NCBI GenBank assembly: GCA_964631415.1
Contig: CAZVZC010000001.1
Coordinates: 100,638 to 164,637 of the forward strand
Direction: 5' to 3'
Length of the DNA stretch: 64,000 bases
DNA from: an uncultured archaeon
GTDB taxonomy: Archaea; Asgardarchaeota; Thorarchaeia; Thorarchaeales; Thorarchaeaceae
The notes below the pieces were generated by a model. It searched no databases and had not been told where the DNA came from. It saw only the letters and a list, made by a program, of their open reading frames with translations. Of this stretch, positions 43,140 to 52,678 are shown one piece after another. How positions within the stretch are numbered: the first letter of the stretch is position 1; each line of letters starts with the position of its first letter. A program made the position numbers and the translations under genes.

Positions 43140-43496
43140 ATGGCCGCTCAATGGATGATCACATTGTCTGACGACAAAGGCGTAGCTCATGACTCTGACT
43201 CCTCGTCTGAGGAACTGATAAGGGTGAGAGTACCCAAGCGGAACGAGGGAGAGATGTTTGGAGTAATAGTGCAGATGCTTGGCTTCGACAGGGTCAGAGT
43301 CAGGTGTGAAGACGGAGAAGTTCGCGTTGGCCGGATTCCGGGTCGTATGAAGAAGCGTGTCTGGATGCGAGTTGGGGACACGGTGTTGGTCGTGCCGTGG
43401 GACTTCCAGTCAGATCAGAAGTGTGACGTGATCTGGCGATACCGTGATAATGAGCTTGACTGGCTGAAGAAGAAAGGCATTCTCAAGATGTTCTGA
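43140..43496 (+). CDS. eif1a: translation initiation factor 1A
   Basis: MLG..RVRVRCEDG..R.GRIPGRMKKRVW. Confidence 0.95.
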   Translation: MAAQWMITLSDDKGVAHDSDSSSEELIRVRVPKRNEGEMFGVIVQMLGFDRVRVRCEDGEVRVGRIPGRMKKRVWMRVGDTVLVVPWDFQSDQKCDVIWRYRDNELDWLKKKGILKMF

Positions 43497-43549
43497 AGTC
43501 GTAACTTCTCATTCATCCGAACCTTACGTGACATTGTGCAGGGCCCGGA

Positions 43550-44359
43550 TTGCGAGGACTGAGCCGCGAGTTGAAACGTGTCGATACCAAATACAGGGAG
43601 ATAGAGTCAGACATTGAGCGCCGGAGGACAAAACGGCGCAAGGATGATGACGAGCTGAAGGTTGTAGAGGGCGTAATAGATCCCCCAACACTCAAGGCAG
43701 TATATCGACTACTCAGTCGTGGCACGCTTCATGCGCTCTACGGTGCAATCAGCACAGGCAAGGAGGCCAATGTATACAGGGGTGTGGATTCTGATGGCAA
43801 GTCTCTGGCCGTGAAGATATACCGGGTGACCACGGCAGAGTCTGACTTCATGCTAGAGTATATCGTTGGTGATCCCCGGTTCAAGAACGTCAAACGTAGG
43901 CATAGATCGTTGATTCCTATGTGGGCTATGAAGGAATACAAGAATCTCCAGCGCTACCATGAGGCAGGAGTGCGAGTACCACGACCGATTGCCATACAGC
44001 GGAATGTGCTGGTAATGGAGTTCATAGGTGACGTTGATGAGGGTGTGCCTGCACCTTTGTTGAAAAACGTTACAATCCCATCGCCGGCCGATACTTTCGA
44101 CGAGGTAATAGGGATGATTGACTTGGCATACAAGAAGGCTGGCTTAGTGCACGCAGACCTAAGTGAGTACAACATCCTGTGGTACAATGGACCCGTCTTC
44201 ATTGACGTGTCGCAGTCTGTACTCACGAATCATGAAAATGCAGAGCGGTATCTCTATCGAGACCTTGAAAACGTCACTGCATACTTCCAGAAGCTGGGCG
44301 TAGAAACCGAGGACCCCAAGGTCATAATGAAATACATCGTTACCCCTGGTGAAGCATGA
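43550..44359 (+). CDS. rio1: RIO1 kinase
   Basis: ISTGKEANVY, LVHADLSEYNIL, IDVSQ. Confidence 0.95.
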   Translation: MRGLSRELKRVDTKYREIESDIERRRTKRRKDDDELKVVEGVIDPPTLKAVYRLLSRGTLHALYGAISTGKEANVYRGVDSDGKSLAVKIYRVTTAESDFMLEYIVGDPRFKNVKRRHRSLIPMWAMKEYKNLQRYHEAGVRVPRPIAIQRNVLVMEFIGDVDEGVPAPLLKNVTIPSPADTFDEVIGMIDLAYKKAGLVHADLSEYNILWYNGPVFIDVSQSVLTNHENAERYLYRDLENVTAYFQKLGVETEDPKVIMKYIVTPGEA

Positions 44360-44921
44360 GATGGCGTTTCAGGAAACTATCAGAGTGCCGGCAGACAGGG
44401 TTGGCGTGATTGTCGGTCGTGACGGTAGAGTCAAGAGAAGAGTCGAGCAGTTGACGAACGCGCGGATAGAAGTCACTCCAGACGGAGTTGTCACTATAAC
44501 AGGTTCTACCGAAACCGCCAACCCGGTCCTCACTTGGAAGGCTCGTGACATTGTCCGTGCAATGGCGAGAGGGTTCAGCCCCAGGAACGCGTTGACTCTC
44601 ATCGACGAGGATGCGAGGCTCGTCGTAATATCACTACGTGACAGTGTCGGGTCGTCTCCAGACCAGCTGAAGAGAGTGGCAGGTAGAATAATAGGAGAGA
44701 GCGGCCGGACTAGGAGGGTGGTTGAGGAGATCACTGAAACCAAAGTCTGTGTCTACGGTCGGACCGTTTCCATGATTGGGACTGACCCCGGGCTAGAGTA
44801 TGCCACACGAGCACTCACTATGTTAGTTGAGGGTGCACCCCATGCAGTGGTCTACAAGTATCTTGAGAAGATGCGCCGAGAGATGAACCGTCAGAAGGCC
44901 GAGCTTTGGGATACGGCCTGA
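44349..44921 (+). CDS. Dim2/Pno1 KH-domain RNA-processing protein
   Basis: RVGVIVGRDG, RGFSP, GRIIGESGRTR, GAPH..VY. Confidence 0.92.
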   Translation: MKHEMAFQETIRVPADRVGVIVGRDGRVKRRVEQLTNARIEVTPDGVVTITGSTETANPVLTWKARDIVRAMARGFSPRNALTLIDEDARLVVISLRDSVGSSPDQLKRVAGRIIGESGRTRRVVEEITETKVCVYGRTVSMIGTDPGLEYATRALTMLVEGAPHAVVYKYLEKMRREMNRQKAELWDTA

Positions 44922-44923
44922 AC

Positions 44924-44984
44924 GTGATGAGCACGTCAATGTAATACCCGGCTCTAATAGGGCTCGCCCTTATCTGCGACCTGA
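44924..44984 (+). ncRNA. possible box C/D sRNA
   Basis: GUGAUGA at 44924 and CUGA at 44981 span the dim2-top6B gap; internal D'/C' unclear. Confidence 0.3.
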
Positions 44985-44989
44985 GCAGC

Positions 44990-46504
44990 ATGAGCCAACA
45001 GATATCTGGCGGAGAGGCATTCACAAGCATTTCTCCTGCCGAGTTCTTCTACCGGAACCGTCAGATGGCAGGTTTCGGCAACTCAACACTCGCAGTCTAC
45101 TCGACGGTGAGAGAGCTCGTTGAGAACAGCCTCGATGCATGCGATGACTCTGGACGTCTTCCTATCGTGACTGTTGACATTACCACAAAGGATTCGGACT
45201 TAGTTTCGGTCACCGTTTCGGACAATGGCACAGGAGTTCCGTACGAGCATGTTGCAGAGGCCTTTGGGAAAGTGCTCTTTGGCAACAAGTACAGCGCAAG
45301 ACAGAGGCGTGGGACTTTCGGTCTTGGTGCCACGATGGCTGCCTTGTATGGGCAAGTGACCACCGATTGTCCTTTGGAGGTGCACACTCAAACAGGAGAG
45401 TCTACAGGCAAAGCATACCGGTTGTTCATTGATATAGAACAAAATGTACCCGTCGTAGACACAATAACAGATCTCAGTAGGGACGGCCCGGGTACATCTG
45501 TCACAGTCCATCTGAAAGGTGACTTCAAGCGTGCACAGGACCGTGTCCTCGAGTACCTTCGAATGACTAGTGTTACCAGTCCTCATGCAAGATTACTGCT
45601 CCGAGTCAATGCAGTCACACAGGCTGAATTCGGCCACTGGACTGATACTCTGCCGAAGCCAACCACGGCTTCGAAGCCTCATCCTAGGGCCGCAGATGTT
45701 GAGCTACTGAAAAGGATGATTGCAGACAACAATGAGAAGCGGCTGAAGGACTTCCTAACAAGCTCATTCCAGCAGATTGGAGATCGCACGGTGTCAAGAT
45801 TGCTCAAGTACGTGTTCCTTGACCCTCGCAAGAATGTTGGATCGTTCACACGTGAGGAGGTATCCCATCTGAGCGCGGCGCTCCGCAGCTTCGATGGCTT
45901 CGGCCGTCCCGAGGCTGACTGCCTGAGCCCGCTGGGCAAGGAGGTCTTTATGACGTCAGTAGGCGCGACGTTCGAAGTGTCGTTCAGCGCATACTCAAAA
46001 AGAGAGCCGTCTGAATGGGATGGAAATCCCTTCATCATCGAAGGGGTCTTGGCAATCGGACCTAGATTTCCTCCGTCTGAGGTCCCGACCCTCTACAGGT
46101 TCGCCAACAGGGTTCCTCTGCTCTACGACTCGAGCGAGGACGTCTTCATGAGAGTACTGAAGAAGATTGACTGGACTCGATATGGTCTGACCGTTCCTCA
46201 GTCAGTTTCGGTGTTTGTTCATTTGTGCTCTACGCGAGTACCCTATAGAGCCGCTGGAAAACAGTCGATAGCTCCAATTCCCGAGATTGAGGCAGAAGCA
46301 CTCCCTTTCTTTAGAGAGCTGGGAAGGGCTTTATCCAAATCGGCGGAGAGGGTAGCGCGTTCGGCCCACGATATCAAGAAACGCCGGGAGTTCATCAAGT
46401 CCTTTGGAATGGTGGCAGGATTCGGAGCAGCTCTAGCCGAGTCAGAACCCCCACCTACTGACCATCTTGTAGCTTCTCTCTTCGAGGTGAACGATGATGT
46501 CTGA
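44990..46504 (+). CDS. top6B: DNA topoisomerase VI subunit B
   Basis: SISPAEFFYRN, RELVENSLDA, DNGTG, RFANRVPLLY. Confidence 0.95.
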   Translation: MSQQISGGEAFTSISPAEFFYRNRQMAGFGNSTLAVYSTVRELVENSLDACDDSGRLPIVTVDITTKDSDLVSVTVSDNGTGVPYEHVAEAFGKVLFGNKYSARQRRGTFGLGATMAALYGQVTTDCPLEVHTQTGESTGKAYRLFIDIEQNVPVVDTITDLSRDGPGTSVTVHLKGDFKRAQDRVLEYLRMTSVTSPHARLLLRVNAVTQAEFGHWTDTLPKPTTASKPHPRAADVELLKRMIADNNEKRLKDFLTSSFQQIGDRTVSRLLKYVFLDPRKNVGSFTREEVSHLSAALRSFDGFGRPEADCLSPLGKEVFMTSVGATFEVSFSAYSKREPSEWDGNPFIIEGVLAIGPRFPPSEVPTLYRFANRVPLLYDSSEDVFMRVLKKIDWTRYGLTVPQSVSVFVHLCSTRVPYRAAGKQSIAPIPEIEAEALPFFRELGRALSKSAERVARSAHDIKKRREFIKSFGMVAGFGAALAESEPPPTDHLVASLFEVNDDV

Positions 46505-47549
46505 TGTCACTGCCCCTCAAAATGCTCTCACGCTACTGGGAAGACGAGTCGTCCAGAGCATCATTGAAGGCAGCTTTCCCACGCTAGAGATACCAGATCG
46601 AAGTACTGAGAACATAGTTTTCGACCCAGATCAGCGTCAGTTCGTCCTTGGTGGTTCTCGAGTGGTAAGGGACTCGAGCAACATCAGGCATGTCAAGAGC
46701 TTCGCGCAGCTGCTCTGGACTGCATACTTCGCGAAGGAACTGCTAAAGGCCTCTCGCACTAGCACGCTCAGAGACCTGTACTACTCAAGTGAGGCCTTCG
46801 GCGTGAAGTTCACAGACCAATCCGAGTCGGACCGTGTTGTTACCGATCTAGAGTCCCTGACTGGTCTCGCTCGAGAAGACTTTGGTGTGTTCCCAGAGGA
46901 GCACTCATCGGTCTATGGGCAGGTGACGATGCGCTACACGGTGCCAGGTTATGATGGGCGCGAGGTGGAACTGACTGTTAGCCCCGATGGGCTGCCTATT
47001 GGCCCTGCACTGATGACAGCAGAGCCTGTCAGAACCGACGCTGAGATTGTACTGGCAGTTGAGTCCGGTGGGATGTTTGGGCGATTGATAGAAACGCGGG
47101 CTTGGGAGCGGTTCAGGGCGGTTCTAGTTCAGCTCGGAGGACAGCCACCAAGGTCTACGCGCCGGCTGATGCGTCGTCTTCACGAGGCGCTAGGACTGCC
47201 GGTTTACATATTCACAGATGGCGACCCTTGGGGTATGCATATTGCCCAAGTCATCATCACCGGCAGTGCAAATGCCGCTCATGTCAGAGGGCTCACTGTG
47301 CCGGATGCCAAGTGGATAGGAGTCACTCCTGCTGATATCAGCAACTATTCCCTTCCGACCGAACAAATGAACGATGCCGATCTCAAGAGATTGGATGAGT
47401 TGACCCAAGACCTGAGATACGCGGACAGTGCTTGGCAGGAACACATTCGGGGTTTCAGAGAGCTACGACGAAAGGCGGAACAACAGGCTTTCAGCAGGTA
47501 TGGCATGGACTATGTCGTTGATACATATCTGCCAGACAAGCTACACTAG
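46494..47549 (+). CDS. top6A: DNA topoisomerase VI subunit A
   Basis: TLRDLYY, TOPRIM FTDGDPWG, KAEQQ. Confidence 0.95.
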   Translation: MMSDVTAPQNALTLLGRRVVQSIIEGSFPTLEIPDRSTENIVFDPDQRQFVLGGSRVVRDSSNIRHVKSFAQLLWTAYFAKELLKASRTSTLRDLYYSSEAFGVKFTDQSESDRVVTDLESLTGLAREDFGVFPEEHSSVYGQVTMRYTVPGYDGREVELTVSPDGLPIGPALMTAEPVRTDAEIVLAVESGGMFGRLIETRAWERFRAVLVQLGGQPPRSTRRLMRRLHEALGLPVYIFTDGDPWGMHIAQVIITGSANAAHVRGLTVPDAKWIGVTPADISNYSLPTEQMNDADLKRLDELTQDLRYADSAWQEHIRGFRELRRKAEQQAFSRYGMDYVVDTYLPDKLH

Positions 47550-48583
47550 AGCCATCCAATCCCCAACGGGTATGCCAACAGAAGCAAGAGGACGCCTGAG
47601 TAGGCAAGCACTGCTTGGAGCAGGACAAGCAGCATGACGTTCTTCTTCTCAGTCATTCTCTTGGAGAGATACGGCAGTAACCAGTACATCGTGAATGGTC
47701 CGGCTACTTCCAGCGTTCCGTCAGGACGCGGCGATGCGAACTTTGCATACTTCGCACCAGAACGTTTGACATGTATTCTGTATATGATATACATCACGAA
47801 GTTCGCAAGGTAAGTAATGAAGAGTATCGCAGCCAGCCTGTCCATGTTGCCGAGTATGAGTGCAGCGGCCATCGTTGCTCCCAGTGGCAGAATGCCGACG
47901 TCGCCTGACAACACCCTTGCGGGATACCAATTGAAAACCAAGAACGCAACGGATGCCCCAAGTAGTGCACCTGCGATGGTTGCTGCGTCAATCTGCGCCT
48001 GTGCGGTGCTCCCTGGTGTGAAGAATGGTGACAGAACCACATAGACCACCAGTGCTGAGGAATTCACACTGGCTAGTCCCGCCTCAAGACCGTTCATGCC
48101 GGCATACATATTGGTGGCATCGATTATGAAGGTCGTCATGAGAGGTACTACGACGAGCGGGTACAGTATGCCTAGATTCACTGTGCCTATCAGCGGCAAC
48201 GAAAAGGTCGGAGTGCCTACACTCATAGCAACCATGGGAATCGACGCGAGCAGAGGGAGGGCGATCTTTGTCCTGTTTCTGAAGTCCAAGTTGTCATCAA
48301 GCAACCCAATCAGCCCTGCCATCAGGATAGACACCAGCGCCGCCATGAGCGATGGAGCAACAACCTCTTGCTCCTCAAACGTGGTGATTCCGATGACAAT
48401 CAGCAGCGCTGTCACTACCGCAAAGAGCACGATGATGCCGCCCCCCTTTGGTATCACTGGTCTTTCCGGTTTATGGACATCAATCCCCGTCTTACCTTTC
48501 TCGATGAGCATCCTGATAGTGCTAGGCATAGCTATTATCACGAACACGAATGCAATCACAATGGCAACCAGAATCATGAGCAT
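47546..48583 (-). CDS. MraY/Alg7-family UDP-GlcNAc:dolichyl-phosphate GlcNAc-1-P transferase
   Basis: GIDVHK...IPKGGG, GLLDD, NMYAGMNGLE, FNWYPARV..GD. Confidence 0.88.
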   Translation of the reverse strand: MLMILVAIVIAFVFVIIAMPSTIRMLIEKGKTGIDVHKPERPVIPKGGGIIVLFAVVTALLIVIGITTFEEQEVVAPSLMAALVSILMAGLIGLLDDNLDFRNRTKIALPLLASIPMVAMSVGTPTFSLPLIGTVNLGILYPLVVVPLMTTFIIDATNMYAGMNGLEAGLASVNSSALVVYVVLSPFFTPGSTAQAQIDAATIAGALLGASVAFLVFNWYPARVLSGDVGILPLGATMAAALILGNMDRLAAILFITYLANFVMYIIYRIHVKRSGAKYAKFASPRPDGTLEVAGPFTMYWLLPYLSKRMTEKKNVMLLVLLQAVLAYSGVLLLLLAYPLGIGWL

Positions 48584-48794
48584 GCTAGAGTCTTCCGGGT
48601 CGGGCTGACTCTGGCTGGGTTTTACACTTTTCGGATAATGACTGCTCTGCCATGCTATTCTTTCTGATGTCGAAGGTACATTTCGTGTATGTACGAAACG
48701 TATTTAACGACTCCAGAAACTCGACCGCATCGTTTGCGACTGGGCCAGCCCAGAGGCGACAAGTCGCTGAGAACCTCGTCTGCGGTGACAAGTC

Positions 48795-51752
48795 TTGAGC
48801 CTGCTCCATACAAGAATAGTGCCTCTTGCTCTTTTCATGCTGCTCTTCACAAGCAGTCTGGCGGTACTTGCTCCATCGGTGATGACGCCGGTACTGAGAA
48901 CGCCGGTCCAGGACTCACAAGGATACACCGTGGCAGGGTTGGCTTCGAATGCATCTATTCCCTATATGGATTGCCACTATGGTCTTGCGGATGGCATAGT
49001 CGATCCGAGGGAGTACTCCTACAACTACACAGACCCGGTCAGCGGGATCACAGTCTACCTTGAGCACAACTCTACAGTCCTGTTCGTTGGGCTCACTGCT
49101 CACACATCAGGCTGGATTGGTCTTGCTTGGATGAACTACACTGAAGGCTTCACTACAGACGGCATCAATGGCAGTGACCTGATTCTTGGCTATGCCCCGG
49201 ACACTCCCCATGAAGTCGTTCAGAGGGTCACAGGTTCAGAGGCTGTCACCGTGCATTACAGACTGTTCCTGAGAAACGGAACGCTACTCCAAGAGGGTAA
49301 TGTACCTGATGACACCTCTACAACAGCAATTCGTGATGAAAGCCTTCTTGATGGCTACAAGCGCCAAGTGTATGGCATGAGGATTGGGGAAACACGGCAC
49401 TTCATGATTCCCGCCGCTGAGGGGTACACGACATCTACCGATTCTCTGTATGGTCAAGACTTGGAATATGTCATAACACTCACCCGGATTGGCACTGATT
49501 TCAACAACCCCGCCCGGTCAAGCCGCATCACGTACAGTGATTGTCATGGAATCAGCACCTTCCAACACCTCGCTGACGCCAATCGGAGTCAGATACTCGC
49601 AGCAAATGCCAGCGACGATGGCACAACAACGCAGCTTGAATACTTTATCAGAATGAACAGCACCGATACTAACGACATTCCACTGCTGAACGCCACGGAT
49701 GTCTGGTATCCTTTCGCATTCATGTTCGGTGCAACAGAGGACTTCAACACTCTTCCTGTTCAGCATAGCGACTGGTCGAGCCCTCTTCTAGTCAAGCTGA
49801 TGCCCAATGAGGCACCCACAATCGTTGTCAAGAGCCCTGGGGAAGACGAGCCCGTTGCATGGGTGACCAATGTCAAGGTCAATGCAACGGACAACACTTT
49901 TGTCAGGCGTGTTTTCTATCGCATAGACGATGAAAACTGGACAGAACTAGACTATAACTTCCAGACGCTTCTGTGGGAGTCCATCCTTGACCTCTCTAAG
50001 TATGAGAATGGCACACATGTATTCCGTTTCAATGGGACTGACCCATCAAACGTGACCACCGTCATCTCGACGAACGTGACAATCAGCCGACCCTACGTTC
50101 CGTTACTGGGAATGAGACTTAGTGTAACAAGGACAGTGACCACACTTCTGTTTCACGGCACACAGGTGACAGACGAGTTCACAGTCCGGAACAACGGCTC
50201 GGCCCCGATTGGAGCCATCGAGCTGTTCCTGCCGCAACCTTTCACCTCGCATTTCCTCTCATTGACAGCAGAGGACGGCTCGGCGAAACAACTCAGGGTC
50301 GTGCAACTTGATGATGTCGGAGGCATGATGCACTGGAGAGTCCACTTCGCTGAAACCGTTGGCTTTCAGGAGTCTTACGTCGTGAAGATGGTGATGTTCC
50401 TTCACTCATTGCACACTCTGACCAACTTCGATTCAAACCTCTACGAACTCAGGTTTCTGAAGTATCCAGTTGTCCCTTATGTCCTCAGCTCCGCATCGCT
50501 CAGCATGGGTCTTAGGAGTGGCGACACCGCTCAAGGGGTGTCACCAGAGGGCAGAGCCAGCAATCTTCCACCAATGAAGATCGAGGAGTTCACGCTCCCG
50601 CTGAAGTCATACACGCCGCTGATAGTGGCGACGCGTGTCACTACAGTGACTGTAGACCCTTGGGGTTGGTTGACATATCACGAAACGATTTCGATTGAGA
50701 ACATAGGACCTGCGAAGGAGAGCACTTTTGCGTTCACGTTCCCAACGTACTCGACGGACATCAAGGTCTATGATGAGGTGGGAATACTACAGAAGTCACA
50801 GAAGACTATAGAGGGCGACCTGTGGAACCAAACGATCCGATTGGACGTCAATCTGAATGAGCGTTTTGGGGAAGTCCAGTCATTCTGGCCCGGCTTTCGC
50901 TACACATTCCAGATAGACTACAAGGTCTTGGCCTCTAGTCACCAGAGCCCGGCCAGCGGAGCGAGTCTTCTGACGATTCCGATGGGCACATTGGGATATA
51001 TGACAGTCACGACGCATACTGTTGATGTGGTCCTACCTGCCTCAGTCTATGTCTTGGAGGTGTCTAAAAGCTACAGACTTCTATACGGCGTCTTTGATGA
51101 CACGCTGAGATTCGTGAGCACGAACACAACTGAGAATAACCCACCGACCGTTACGTTACTCTATCGCACCTCCCTGTGGGTCGCGATGAGGCCTCTTGCC
51201 TTCTCACTCATCTTCGGACTCTTTGCTTTCGCCTACGTTGCGTACAGGAAACTTAAGCTACCCGCGGCGATGGTCACGATCGCAACTTCAGAGGAAATAG
51301 CTGCAGAGGCCCAGCAGACTGGTGCACCTCCCGAGCTTCTCAGAAGGTTTGCGAGCACCTATTCGAAGAAGACCTCACTGGATCTTGACTTGGAGAATCT
51401 GGAGGCAGCATTGAAGCGAGGAAAAGTGAAGAAGAGAGAATTCACGATTCGCGAGGGCGACATAAAGACTCAGCTTGAAAAGATTGACAAAGAGCTAAGT
51501 GGTCTCAAGGATGAGGTTATGTCCCATGGACCCAAGTATAGGGACATGGTCGCACAGCTTGAGCTGCACGAAGAGCGAATTGCTGGTGCAAAGGCCGGTC
51601 TCAATCAGCTACTTATCCGGAAGAAGAAGCAGAGAATCAGTGCCGGGGCCTTCGAGAAGACGCGCCAGGACTATCTCAAGGCTATCAAGAAGGCGATAGC
51701 TGCCACAGACCGCATCCTCCTGTCAATCGAAGAAGAAGCTGGAGAGTTCTGA
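48795..51752 (+). CDS. ribophorin-I (OST1)-like membrane protein with N-terminal DOMON-like, inserted FKBP-like and Ig-like domains
   Basis: Signal peptide; GWIGLAW..GSDLILG; VTVHYR..GMRIGETR.F.IP...GY; two ribophorin lumenal repeats (VDPWG..HE, YDEVG); TM helix; cytosolic coiled coil. Confidence 0.7.
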   Translation: MSLLHTRIVPLALFMLLFTSSLAVLAPSVMTPVLRTPVQDSQGYTVAGLASNASIPYMDCHYGLADGIVDPREYSYNYTDPVSGITVYLEHNSTVLFVGLTAHTSGWIGLAWMNYTEGFTTDGINGSDLILGYAPDTPHEVVQRVTGSEAVTVHYRLFLRNGTLLQEGNVPDDTSTTAIRDESLLDGYKRQVYGMRIGETRHFMIPAAEGYTTSTDSLYGQDLEYVITLTRIGTDFNNPARSSRITYSDCHGISTFQHLADANRSQILAANASDDGTTTQLEYFIRMNSTDTNDIPLLNATDVWYPFAFMFGATEDFNTLPVQHSDWSSPLLVKLMPNEAPTIVVKSPGEDEPVAWVTNVKVNATDNTFVRRVFYRIDDENWTELDYNFQTLLWESILDLSKYENGTHVFRFNGTDPSNVTTVISTNVTISRPYVPLLGMRLSVTRTVTTLLFHGTQVTDEFTVRNNGSAPIGAIELFLPQPFTSHFLSLTAEDGSAKQLRVVQLDDVGGMMHWRVHFAETVGFQESYVVKMVMFLHSLHTLTNFDSNLYELRFLKYPVVPYVLSSASLSMGLRSGDTAQGVSPEGRASNLPPMKIEEFTLPLKSYTPLIVATRVTTVTVDPWGWLTYHETISIENIGPAKESTFAFTFPTYSTDIKVYDEVGILQKSQKTIEGDLWNQTIRLDVNLNERFGEVQSFWPGFRYTFQIDYKVLASSHQSPASGASLLTIPMGTLGYMTVTTHTVDVVLPASVYVLEVSKSYRLLYGVFDDTLRFVSTNTTENNPPTVTLLYRTSLWVAMRPLAFSLIFGLFAFAYVAYRKLKLPAAMVTIATSEEIAAEAQQTGAPPELLRRFASTYSKKTSLDLDLENLEAALKRGKVKKREFTIREGDIKTQLEKIDKELSGLKDEVMSHGPKYRDMVAQLELHEERIAGAKAGLNQLLIRKKKQRISAGAFEKTRQDYLKAIKKAIAATDRILLSIEEEAGEF

Positions 51753-51784: not shown

Positions 51785-52678
51785 ATGAAGAGGACAAGAG
51801 ATGCCCTAATGGGGGATGCCGTTATGGCCAGAAGTACACCCTTTGACAGAGAGAAAGTCAGCGTGCGCAAGACTTTGGGTTCGGGCACCAAGTCCCTAGA
51901 GATGTATCAATACTTGAGCAGATCCCCGAAGGTCCAGTCTTATCTTCGCAGTGCCAACCGTATGGCAGTGTCCCGGCTGGGATACACAGACCATGGTCCG
52001 GTTCATGCTGAGGTGGCCACGTGGAATGCACTCACAGCCTTTGATATCCTTGTTCAGACATTCCGCCCCAATGTTGTTGCAGAGGGGATTGGTGACACGG
52101 ATGACGCACGCATGGTCGTGCTGGCATCCACTTATCTACATGACATAGGCATGGTCGTTCACCGCAATGAGCATCCCCAAGCCGCAGTTCCTCTTGCCAG
52201 TGTGATTCTAGATGAGAAGCTCGCAGAGCTCTATGAGGATCCCGGAAAGGCGACGGACATTCTGTCATTCATGCTCCATGGAATATACGCACACGATGAT
52301 GACACACAGTGTCTGACTTTCGAAGCCGGTGTCACCAAGCTGGGTGACGGTTGTGACATGACAAAGGGTAGGACTACCATTCCATTTCAGAAAGGCAAGG
52401 TGGACATCCATTCACTGAGCGCCATGGCAATAAACGACGTCATACTTGAGCGTGGTACTGAGAAGCCTCTTCAGATAACGGTCGATATGGACAATCCAGC
52501 CGGCGTATTCCAAGTCCAAGCCGTTCTTGAAAAGAAGATATCAACGTCGGGACTGAGTGACTATGTTTCTATAGAGGCTCTGGTGAACGGTGACCGATTG
52601 GTCTTGTCTCAAGTCAAGAGGCTCTTCAGAGTTGAGATGGCAGACTCTCCGCCTTCAATAAGCGTCAAAGAGAAATGA
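51785..52678 (+). CDS. HD-domain phosphohydrolase
   Basis: GYTDHGPVHA, YLHDIG, DGCDM; start may be 51823. Confidence 0.85.
   Translation: MKRTRDALMGDAVMARSTPFDREKVSVRKTLGSGTKSLEMYQYLSRSPKVQSYLRSANRMAVSRLGYTDHGPVHAEVATWNALTAFDILVQTFRPNVVAEGIGDTDDARMVVLASTYLHDIGMVVHRNEHPQAAVPLASVILDEKLAELYEDPGKATDILSFMLHGIYAHDDDTQCLTFEAGVTKLGDGCDMTKGRTTIPFQKGKVDIHSLSAMAINDVILERGTEKPLQITVDMDNPAGVFQVQAVLEKKISTSGLSDYVSIEALVNGDRLVLSQVKRLFRVEMADSPPSISVKEK

Follow-up and report, generated by a model that had tools for sequence, protein, structure and literature searches.

An FKBP domain nested in a DOMON domain at the N-terminus of OST1 (ribophorin I) throughout the Thorarchaeales

Introduction

OST1 (ribophorin I), a helper subunit of oligosaccharyltransferase (OST), is a standard eukaryotic-signature protein of Asgard archaea, and the role of its ectodomain is unclear even in yeast and humans. 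Asgard OST1 proteins have already been described (PMC10307638, PMC11417166), and the cytosolic domain of the one from 'Ca. Prometheoarchaeum syntrophicum' MK-D1, a four-helix bundle (PDB 8WHN), pulls down ribosomes (PMC11417166). In humans, FKBP11 binds OST-A translocons that are making proteins with long luminal segments (PMC12804085; PDB 9YGY). Here we analyse 64,000 nucleotides of DNA from an uncultured archaeon of the Thorarchaeales (contig CAZVZC010000001.1, positions 100,638 to 164,637; "the window" below), in which a single gene (48795..51752, plus strand; 985 amino acids (aa), TTG start) encodes an OST1 that is extended at its N-terminus by a DOMON domain, an FKBP domain inserted into that DOMON, and an Ig-like domain. 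We refer to these three domains as the head.

Results

Identity of the OST1 half

The open reading frame (ORF) at 48795-51752 has zero internal stops, and the sequence motifs quoted in a preliminary description of this DNA are present where it had placed them. More than 100 full-length homologues rule out an assembly chimera or a read-through. The order of parts proposed in that description (signal peptide, DOMON, FKBP insert, DOMON, Ig, ribophorin, transmembrane helix) was upheld by Pfam, hhalign, AlphaFold2 (AF2) modelling with VIA-align structure matching, and hydropathy.

The assignment of the C-terminal half to ribophorin I also held. When aa 436-802 are scanned alone, the Ribophorin_I family (PF04597) scores 31.1 bits against a cut-off of 25, and it is not detected by a Pfam scan of the whole 985-aa chain. 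With hhalign the protein aligns to nine other (non-Thorarchaeal) Asgard OST1s at 100% over 523 columns (aa 438-980), and in the 85%-complete genome a profile of those nine picks out this ORF alone (E 4e-81); no second canonical OST1 was found with that profile. A genome search with PF04597 itself gave no match, but its controls gave none either. The ribophorin I extracellular region (aa 436-795, 50100..51179) consists of two luminal-type domains; they had been described as two ribophorin-type repeats, but their similarity by sequence is weak (hhalign 16.6%). Hydropathy shows a signal-like stretch (hydrophobic aa 11-29; putative signal peptide, aa 1 to ~25, 48795..48869, with similar leaders in homologues) and a single transmembrane helix (~aa 796-819, 51180..51251), that is, a type I topology. 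The tail beyond this helix had been called a long cytosolic coiled coil; it is cytosolic, but instead of a coiled coil it is homologous in sequence to the ribosome-binding four-helix bundle of MK-D1 OST1 (aa 842-985, 51318..51752; E 1.8e-5 with the single sequence and 6.4e-10 with a profile). This bundle is the most conserved part of the protein, with 73 of its 144 columns at least 90% conserved. The abundance of sequons noted earlier is real as well, since the ectodomain has 19 where 6.5 are expected and none of 2000 shuffles reaches 19; several are kept in nearly all homologues, and N678 and N777 are invariant (105/105). All testable features of its sequence (luminal region, topology, cytosolic bundle and sole gene) place the protein in the OST1 family, as the only OST1/ribophorin I detected in the genome and a predicted type I membrane glycoprotein.

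The head and its split DOMON domain

The head was modelled by AF2 on 107 homologues (aa 48-436, the C-terminal half lying outside the model), and the three domains together reach a pLDDT of 93.9 and a pTM of 0.88. By VIA-align, model residues 6-290 match DOMON-fold proteins, namely EbdC (2ivf_C; Z 15.7, root-mean-square deviation (rmsd) 2.8, 168 aligned), NxrC, the DOMON of dopamine beta-hydroxylase (Z 13.7), CBM9 (Z 12.3) and the cytochrome domain of cellobiose dehydrogenase (CDH), and residues 292-386 match Ig domains. Foldseek on the three-domain model returned generic Ig-type matches only, and the VIA search resolved the domains. The Ig-like domain (aa 339-432, 49809..50090) is of the Big_7 type by Pfam (match at aa 341-409).

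The two halves of the DOMON (aa 52-135, 48948..49199, and aa 243-338, 49521..49808) flank the FKBP domain (aa 143-233, 49221..49493). PF03351 (DOMON) is matched in 40 of the 107 members. The DOMON with its insert removed aligns to Pfam-positive Asgard DOMON proteins at 99.2% in hhalign (E 1.7e-19), unbroken across the splice. Since those proteins include DOMONs that keep both heme ligands, Met and His, the FKBP has been cleanly inserted into a hairpin of a DOMON that once bound heme, and the split DOMON of the preliminary description stands. Several FKBP structure matches begin as early as model residues 10-16, and these match ranges suggest that the N-terminal arm of the DOMON completes the FKBP sheet. 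Conservation is higher in the head than in the ribophorin ectodomain next to it (column identity 0.76/0.69/0.67 versus 0.56/0.60).

The heme Met, which had been said to be replaced, is indeed gone: its position is L in 95 and I in 10 of 105 homologues (Ile124 here), and it is directly followed by a sequon, N125, in 102/105. The heme-His position (His324) is H in 95 and R in 10 of the 105. With Met lost in 105/105, the Met/His ligand pair of heme-binding DOMONs is broken, and we reject a heme cytochrome role. It is highly improbable that the DOMON nevertheless binds heme through His324 and another His, coupling electron transfer to glycosylation. His324, His61, His91 and His258 are conserved and the donor family is a heme-type DOMON in Fe-S/NrfD operons, but the Met ligand is missing throughout, His324 has become Arg in 10/105, and the locus has no linked redox genes.

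The OST1 DOMON probably stems from a family of membrane-anchored DOMON proteins of other Asgard lineages. Their genes are followed by 4Fe-4S and NrfD-type genes (L034:2457-5973, L038:2390-5726 and L281:2934-7001), and Met and His are both kept in the DOMON proteins of L034 and L038. These loci probably form a respiratory module.

The N-terminal half of the DOMON also has a conserved acidic loop (D66, G67, D70, E73, Y74), which by comparison with CBM9 is a probable calcium site. The resemblance to CBM9 raises the question of whether the heme-less DOMON is a CBM9-like glycan site that holds new glycoproteins for the FKBP, much as malectin does on human ribophorin I (RPN1). Besides the fold match, His324 and the aromatic residues W107, W112, F119 and W327 have stayed conserved despite the loss of the heme Met, and human ribophorin I associates with malectin (PMC7226087). 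However, the closest relatives of this DOMON are the heme-type domains of Fe-S/NrfD operons, not carbohydrate-binding modules, and the conserved sequon N125 beside the former Met may carry a glycan that shields the pocket. We therefore regard such lectin-based quality control as quite unlikely; the DOMON is most likely a scaffold, which may bind glycan as well.

The FKBP insert and its pocket

That the insert has an FKBP fold, as first proposed, is supported by Pfam, by the model and by alignment. FKBP_C (PF00254) matches aa 146-227 with E 6.7e-7 (30 bits, cut-off 21.1), an FKBP match is present in 107/107 homologues, and model residues 96-187 match SlyD (Z 12.4, rmsd 1.9, 85 aligned) and FKBP2 (Z 11.8). 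The chaperone domain known as insert-in-flap (IF) is absent, only 13 residues separating the equivalents of Y82 and F99. Pocket residues Y155, L165, Q166, L185, Y188, Y211 and Y225 correspond to FKBP12 Y26, F36, D37, I56, W59, Y82 and F99. The equivalents of Y26, W59 (as Y) and Y82 are each Y in 105/105, and that of I56 is L in 104/105. The canonical F36, D37 and F99 are not found in the main family: position 36 is mostly aliphatic (L here), position 37 is Q or E (Q here; D in 2/105), and position 99 is Y in 101/105, this protein included, and F in 4/105. In the orthologue of the sister family the pocket is fully canonical (Y-F-D-I-F-Y-F), and the captured FKBP was therefore probably an active isomerase at the time of capture. 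Since the pocket has been remodelled in the main family, the FKBP there, including the one encoded by this gene, is probably a slower isomerase or a clamp for proline peptides. F99Y strongly lowers the activity of FKBP12, a point on which we do not rely. In Thermus SlyD a mutant of the D37 equivalent keeps 78% activity and the Y82 and F99 equivalents matter more, the F99-equivalent mutant F128A keeping 30-40% (PMC5034536). By analogy with SlyD, residual isomerase activity is thus plausible, if unproven.

Distribution of the fusion and conservation of its locus

Of 87 Thorarchaeales genomes, 83 have the head, among them all 24 of high quality; in the four genomes without it the neighbouring GT4 gene (below) is missing (three genomes) or cut by the contig end (the fourth). 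In a sample of the phylum it was found in 57/59 and 1/1 genomes of two Thorarchaeales families and in 0/190 of the other Asgard genomes searched, which gave single-domain matches only. The homologues carry the label Ca. Thorarchaeota. Ig-repeat proteins dominated the matches among 50%-cluster representatives; the whole-module matches there were OST1 fusions, fragments of these and free paralogues of 567-586 aa, and where named they were Thorarchaeota records plus one labelled "Lokiarchaeota". The head was thus gained at the base of the Thorarchaeales, as a heme-less DOMON with an IF-less FKBP in its hairpin and an Ig spacer. The fusion being confined to one order, it is a derived, order-wide, lineage-specific variant and not a proto-ER (endoplasmic reticulum) ancestor, and on this point the "proto-ER device" of the preliminary description has to be given up as a statement of ancestry.

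Free paralogues of the head that lack ribophorin, 567-595 aa long, occur at L031:3830-5587, L032:3834-5618, L111:2542-4260 and L112:798-2501; those of L031 and L032 end in an extra Ig-like domain and a transmembrane helix. They are rare, being present in 2/87 Thorarchaeales genomes.

Divergent from the OST1 gene lies a putative GT4 gene (47546..48583, minus strand; PF00953, E 1.8e-29) for a GlcNAc-1-phosphate (N-acetylglucosamine-1-phosphate) transferase of the AglH/Alg7/DPAGT1 type, and the two genes have a 211-bp intergenic region in common (48584..48794). This head-to-head arrangement is found in every related locus with enough flanking sequence, that of the sister family included. A scan for sigma-70 types of promoter established none within 48584..48794. 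Directly 3' of OST1 is a gene for an HD-domain-like protein (51785-52678, plus strand), kept in 31/31 related loci checked. Upstream, and convergent with the GT4 gene, a run of genes on the plus strand (43140-47549) encodes, as we read their names from the sequence, aIF-1A, a RIO1 kinase, a KH protein, and topoisomerase VI B and A; the order from KH to topoisomerase VI is identical in the sister family (locus L033).

Exported FKBPs of other Asgard archaea

With a threshold of E 1e-5, FKBP matches of the module beyond the Thorarchaeales are limited to free exported FKBPs of family f14. They belong to a group of proteins, encoded in Heimdallarchaeota-labelled genomes, with a signal peptide, an FKBP domain, a transmembrane helix and a cytosolic Cys-rich zinc finger (L039:2510-3136 and L081-L107). 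Such proteins occur in 10/10 genomes in one family and in 14/26 in another, and we found no description of them in the literature. Their topology is FKBP11-like, the pocket is often canonical in family f14, and family f5 has tandem divergent paralogues. These free exported FKBP-transmembrane proteins are the closest Asgard relatives of the OST1 FKBP. In a quick tree (113 columns, long branches, a biased sample, no eukaryotic sequences, and no donor direction claimed), a branch with a Shimodaira-Hasegawa-like approximate likelihood ratio (SH-aLRT) of 98 has on one side the OST1 inserts together with 28 of the 44 exported rows, and on the other the remaining 16 exported rows and all 76 other prokaryotic FKBPs sampled.

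A DOMON-fold tail on AglB

The genome's AglB/STT3 (G000:C1:46457-49246, outside the window) has a conserved C-terminal DOMON-fold domain of 185 aa (L049:3736-4290). Its model has a pLDDT of 94 and a Z of 15.6 to EbdC, and hhalign gives 90.6% for it against the OST1 DOMON, where 30 shuffles give at most 3.4%. On inspection of the sequences no heme-ligand motif is evident in the AglB DOMON. Its range is that of the OST1 head (57/59 and 1/1 genomes of the same two families), and the two DOMON gains map to one node; their co-occurrence therefore counts as one event and does not amount to a statistical test. A complex prediction for the head (aa 48-436) and the luminal part of AglB (aa 512-930) gave scores of 0.12 and 0.00, where the mark is 0.32, and it counts neither way.

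This coincidence bears on the idea that the FKBP is a pseudo-isomerase adaptor, whose pocket binds a fixed partner (a translocon accessory protein, the translocon-associated protein (TRAP) or the new DOMON of AglB) and not nascent chains. The non-canonical pocket substitutions are fixed and the tyrosines invariant, AglB acquired its DOMON in the same clade, and human FKBP11, which binds CCDC134 (PMC12804085), is a precedent. Against this, the catalytic pocket has stayed canonical in the sister family, and the AglB DOMON is a candidate partner only, its co-occurrence with the head being one event at one node. We hold an adaptor role to be possible and, on balance, somewhat unlikely.

Other Asgard AglBs (L272-L276), proteins of 1045-1305 aa in total, also have long C-terminal tails with weak Ig-like matches; these are unlike the Thorarchaeal DOMON tail. 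Asgard AglBs accrete Ig-like tails, and the head might similarly be envelope decoration or a spacer, a surface module on an abundant membrane anchor that acts on mature surface proteins or serves as a stalk and has no part in handling nascent chains. The existence of free DOMON-FKBP-Ig-(Ig)-transmembrane paralogues would fit this, as would the heavy glycosylation predicted for the protein. We nonetheless consider it very unlikely, given that the fusion is kept throughout the order and is conserved above the ribophorin domains, and that the free paralogue is rare.

Discussion

The fusion is real, order-wide and apparently undescribed: in agreement with the preliminary description, which knew no such architecture, we found no FKBP- or DOMON-ribophorin I fusion in the literature searched, in which few subscription papers were covered. 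Our favoured reading, to which we give an even chance, is that the head positions a proline-binding pocket close to chains as they exit the translocon, and that tethering replaces the missing chaperone insert. By analogy with MK-D1 OST1, the cytosolic bundle would dock ribosomes, and the transmembrane helix and membrane-proximal domains would sit in the Sec/OST translocon beside AglB. The rigid head would then hold the FKBP pocket at the Sec/OST exit, near emerging chains, where proline-containing segments of exported glycoproteins could be bound, and possibly isomerised, during glycosylation and folding; tethering would give the local concentration that SlyD obtains from its IF domain.

This proline-pocket reading draws on the protein's being the sole OST1, on its homology to 8WHN, the conserved GT4 neighbour, the order-wide retention and conservation of the head and its compact model, and also on the invariant pocket tyrosines, the tolerance of SlyD for change at its D37 equivalent, the canonical pocket of the sister family and the precedent of FKBP11. 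Several points weigh on the other side. The main family departs from the canonical residues at F36, D37 and F99, the F99 equivalent matters for catalysis by SlyD, and there is no IF chaperone domain. In human FKBP11 the site is buried by CCDC134, and its authors favour an adaptor role over that of an isomerase (PMC12804085). OST is not a requirement for this head, which also exists as a free membrane-anchored protein lacking ribophorin, and the varied long Ig-like tails of other Asgard AglBs imply that OST subunits commonly accrete extracellular parts. Placed at the N-terminus, the head lies past both luminal domains, and that it can reach the Sec exit is an assumption. Finally, isomerisation by the head is a prediction.

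A broader proposal, which we think unlikely, is that Asgard translocons generally use an extracellular FKBP, fused to OST1 in Thorarchaeales and free, as the signal-FKBP-transmembrane-zinc-finger protein, in Heimdallarchaeota; such handling at the Sec/OST exit would then predate eukaryotes and be the forerunner of FKBP11-type ER factors, and the paired DOMONs of OST1 and AglB would form a folding vestibule. If this were true, the fusion would be a Rosetta stone for the pre-eukaryotic FKBP-assisted handling of nascent glycoproteins. In either case the order-wide fusion is a natural experiment that links the handling of prolyl bonds to the prokaryotic site of glycosylation and secretion, and the head is a soluble, well-predicted module of 390 residues, open to direct assay. 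Exported FKBPs are found in at least two Asgard lineages, which qualifies the published view (PMC11417166) that signal peptides are lacking from Asgard homologues of ER chaperones. Public records name the proteins described here "FKBP-type PPIase" (peptidyl-prolyl isomerase) or "Ig-like domain protein", and PF04597 is missed on the full chain; Thorarchaeal OST1 is thus easily overlooked and can be scored as absent in surveys.

Among known systems, SlyD and the short archaeal FKBPs (PDB 3CGM, 3PRB) have in common with the insert the FKBP fold and a SlyD-like flap-base loop, but the insert is extracellular and not cytosolic, is without the IF domain, and is altered at the F36, D37 and F99 positions. 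The DOMON shares its beta-sandwich (Z 12-16) and the C-terminal His with EbdC/NxrC, dopamine beta-hydroxylase, the CDH cytochrome domain and CBM9, and differs from other DOMONs in its lost heme Met, in the 90-residue FKBP in its hairpin and in its fusion to an OST subunit. As in the malectin-ribophorin I complex (PMC7226087), a beta-sandwich module is attached to ribophorin I, but malectin is a separate lectin of another family, and glycan binding by the OST1 DOMON is only hypothetical. The OST1s of MK-D1 and other Asgard archaea have the same signal peptide, ribophorin ectodomain, single transmembrane helix and basic cytosolic helical bundle; those examined are 560-712 aa long with no head detected, and the Thorarchaeal protein is longer by the ~390 residues of DOMON, FKBP and Ig. 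No special sequence kinship with human FKBP11 was seen (profile E 0.028, no better than for other FKBPs), and the arrangement is best read as convergent on FKBP11/OST-A and not as ancestral to the eukaryotic one. As in FKBP11, a luminal or extracellular FKBP would be held at a ribosome-bound Sec/OST translocon through a transmembrane helix and a basic, ribosome-binding cytosolic part; unlike FKBP11, which is a separate and transiently recruited protein with its site buried by CCDC134, the FKBP here is covalently part of OST1 and nested within a DOMON.

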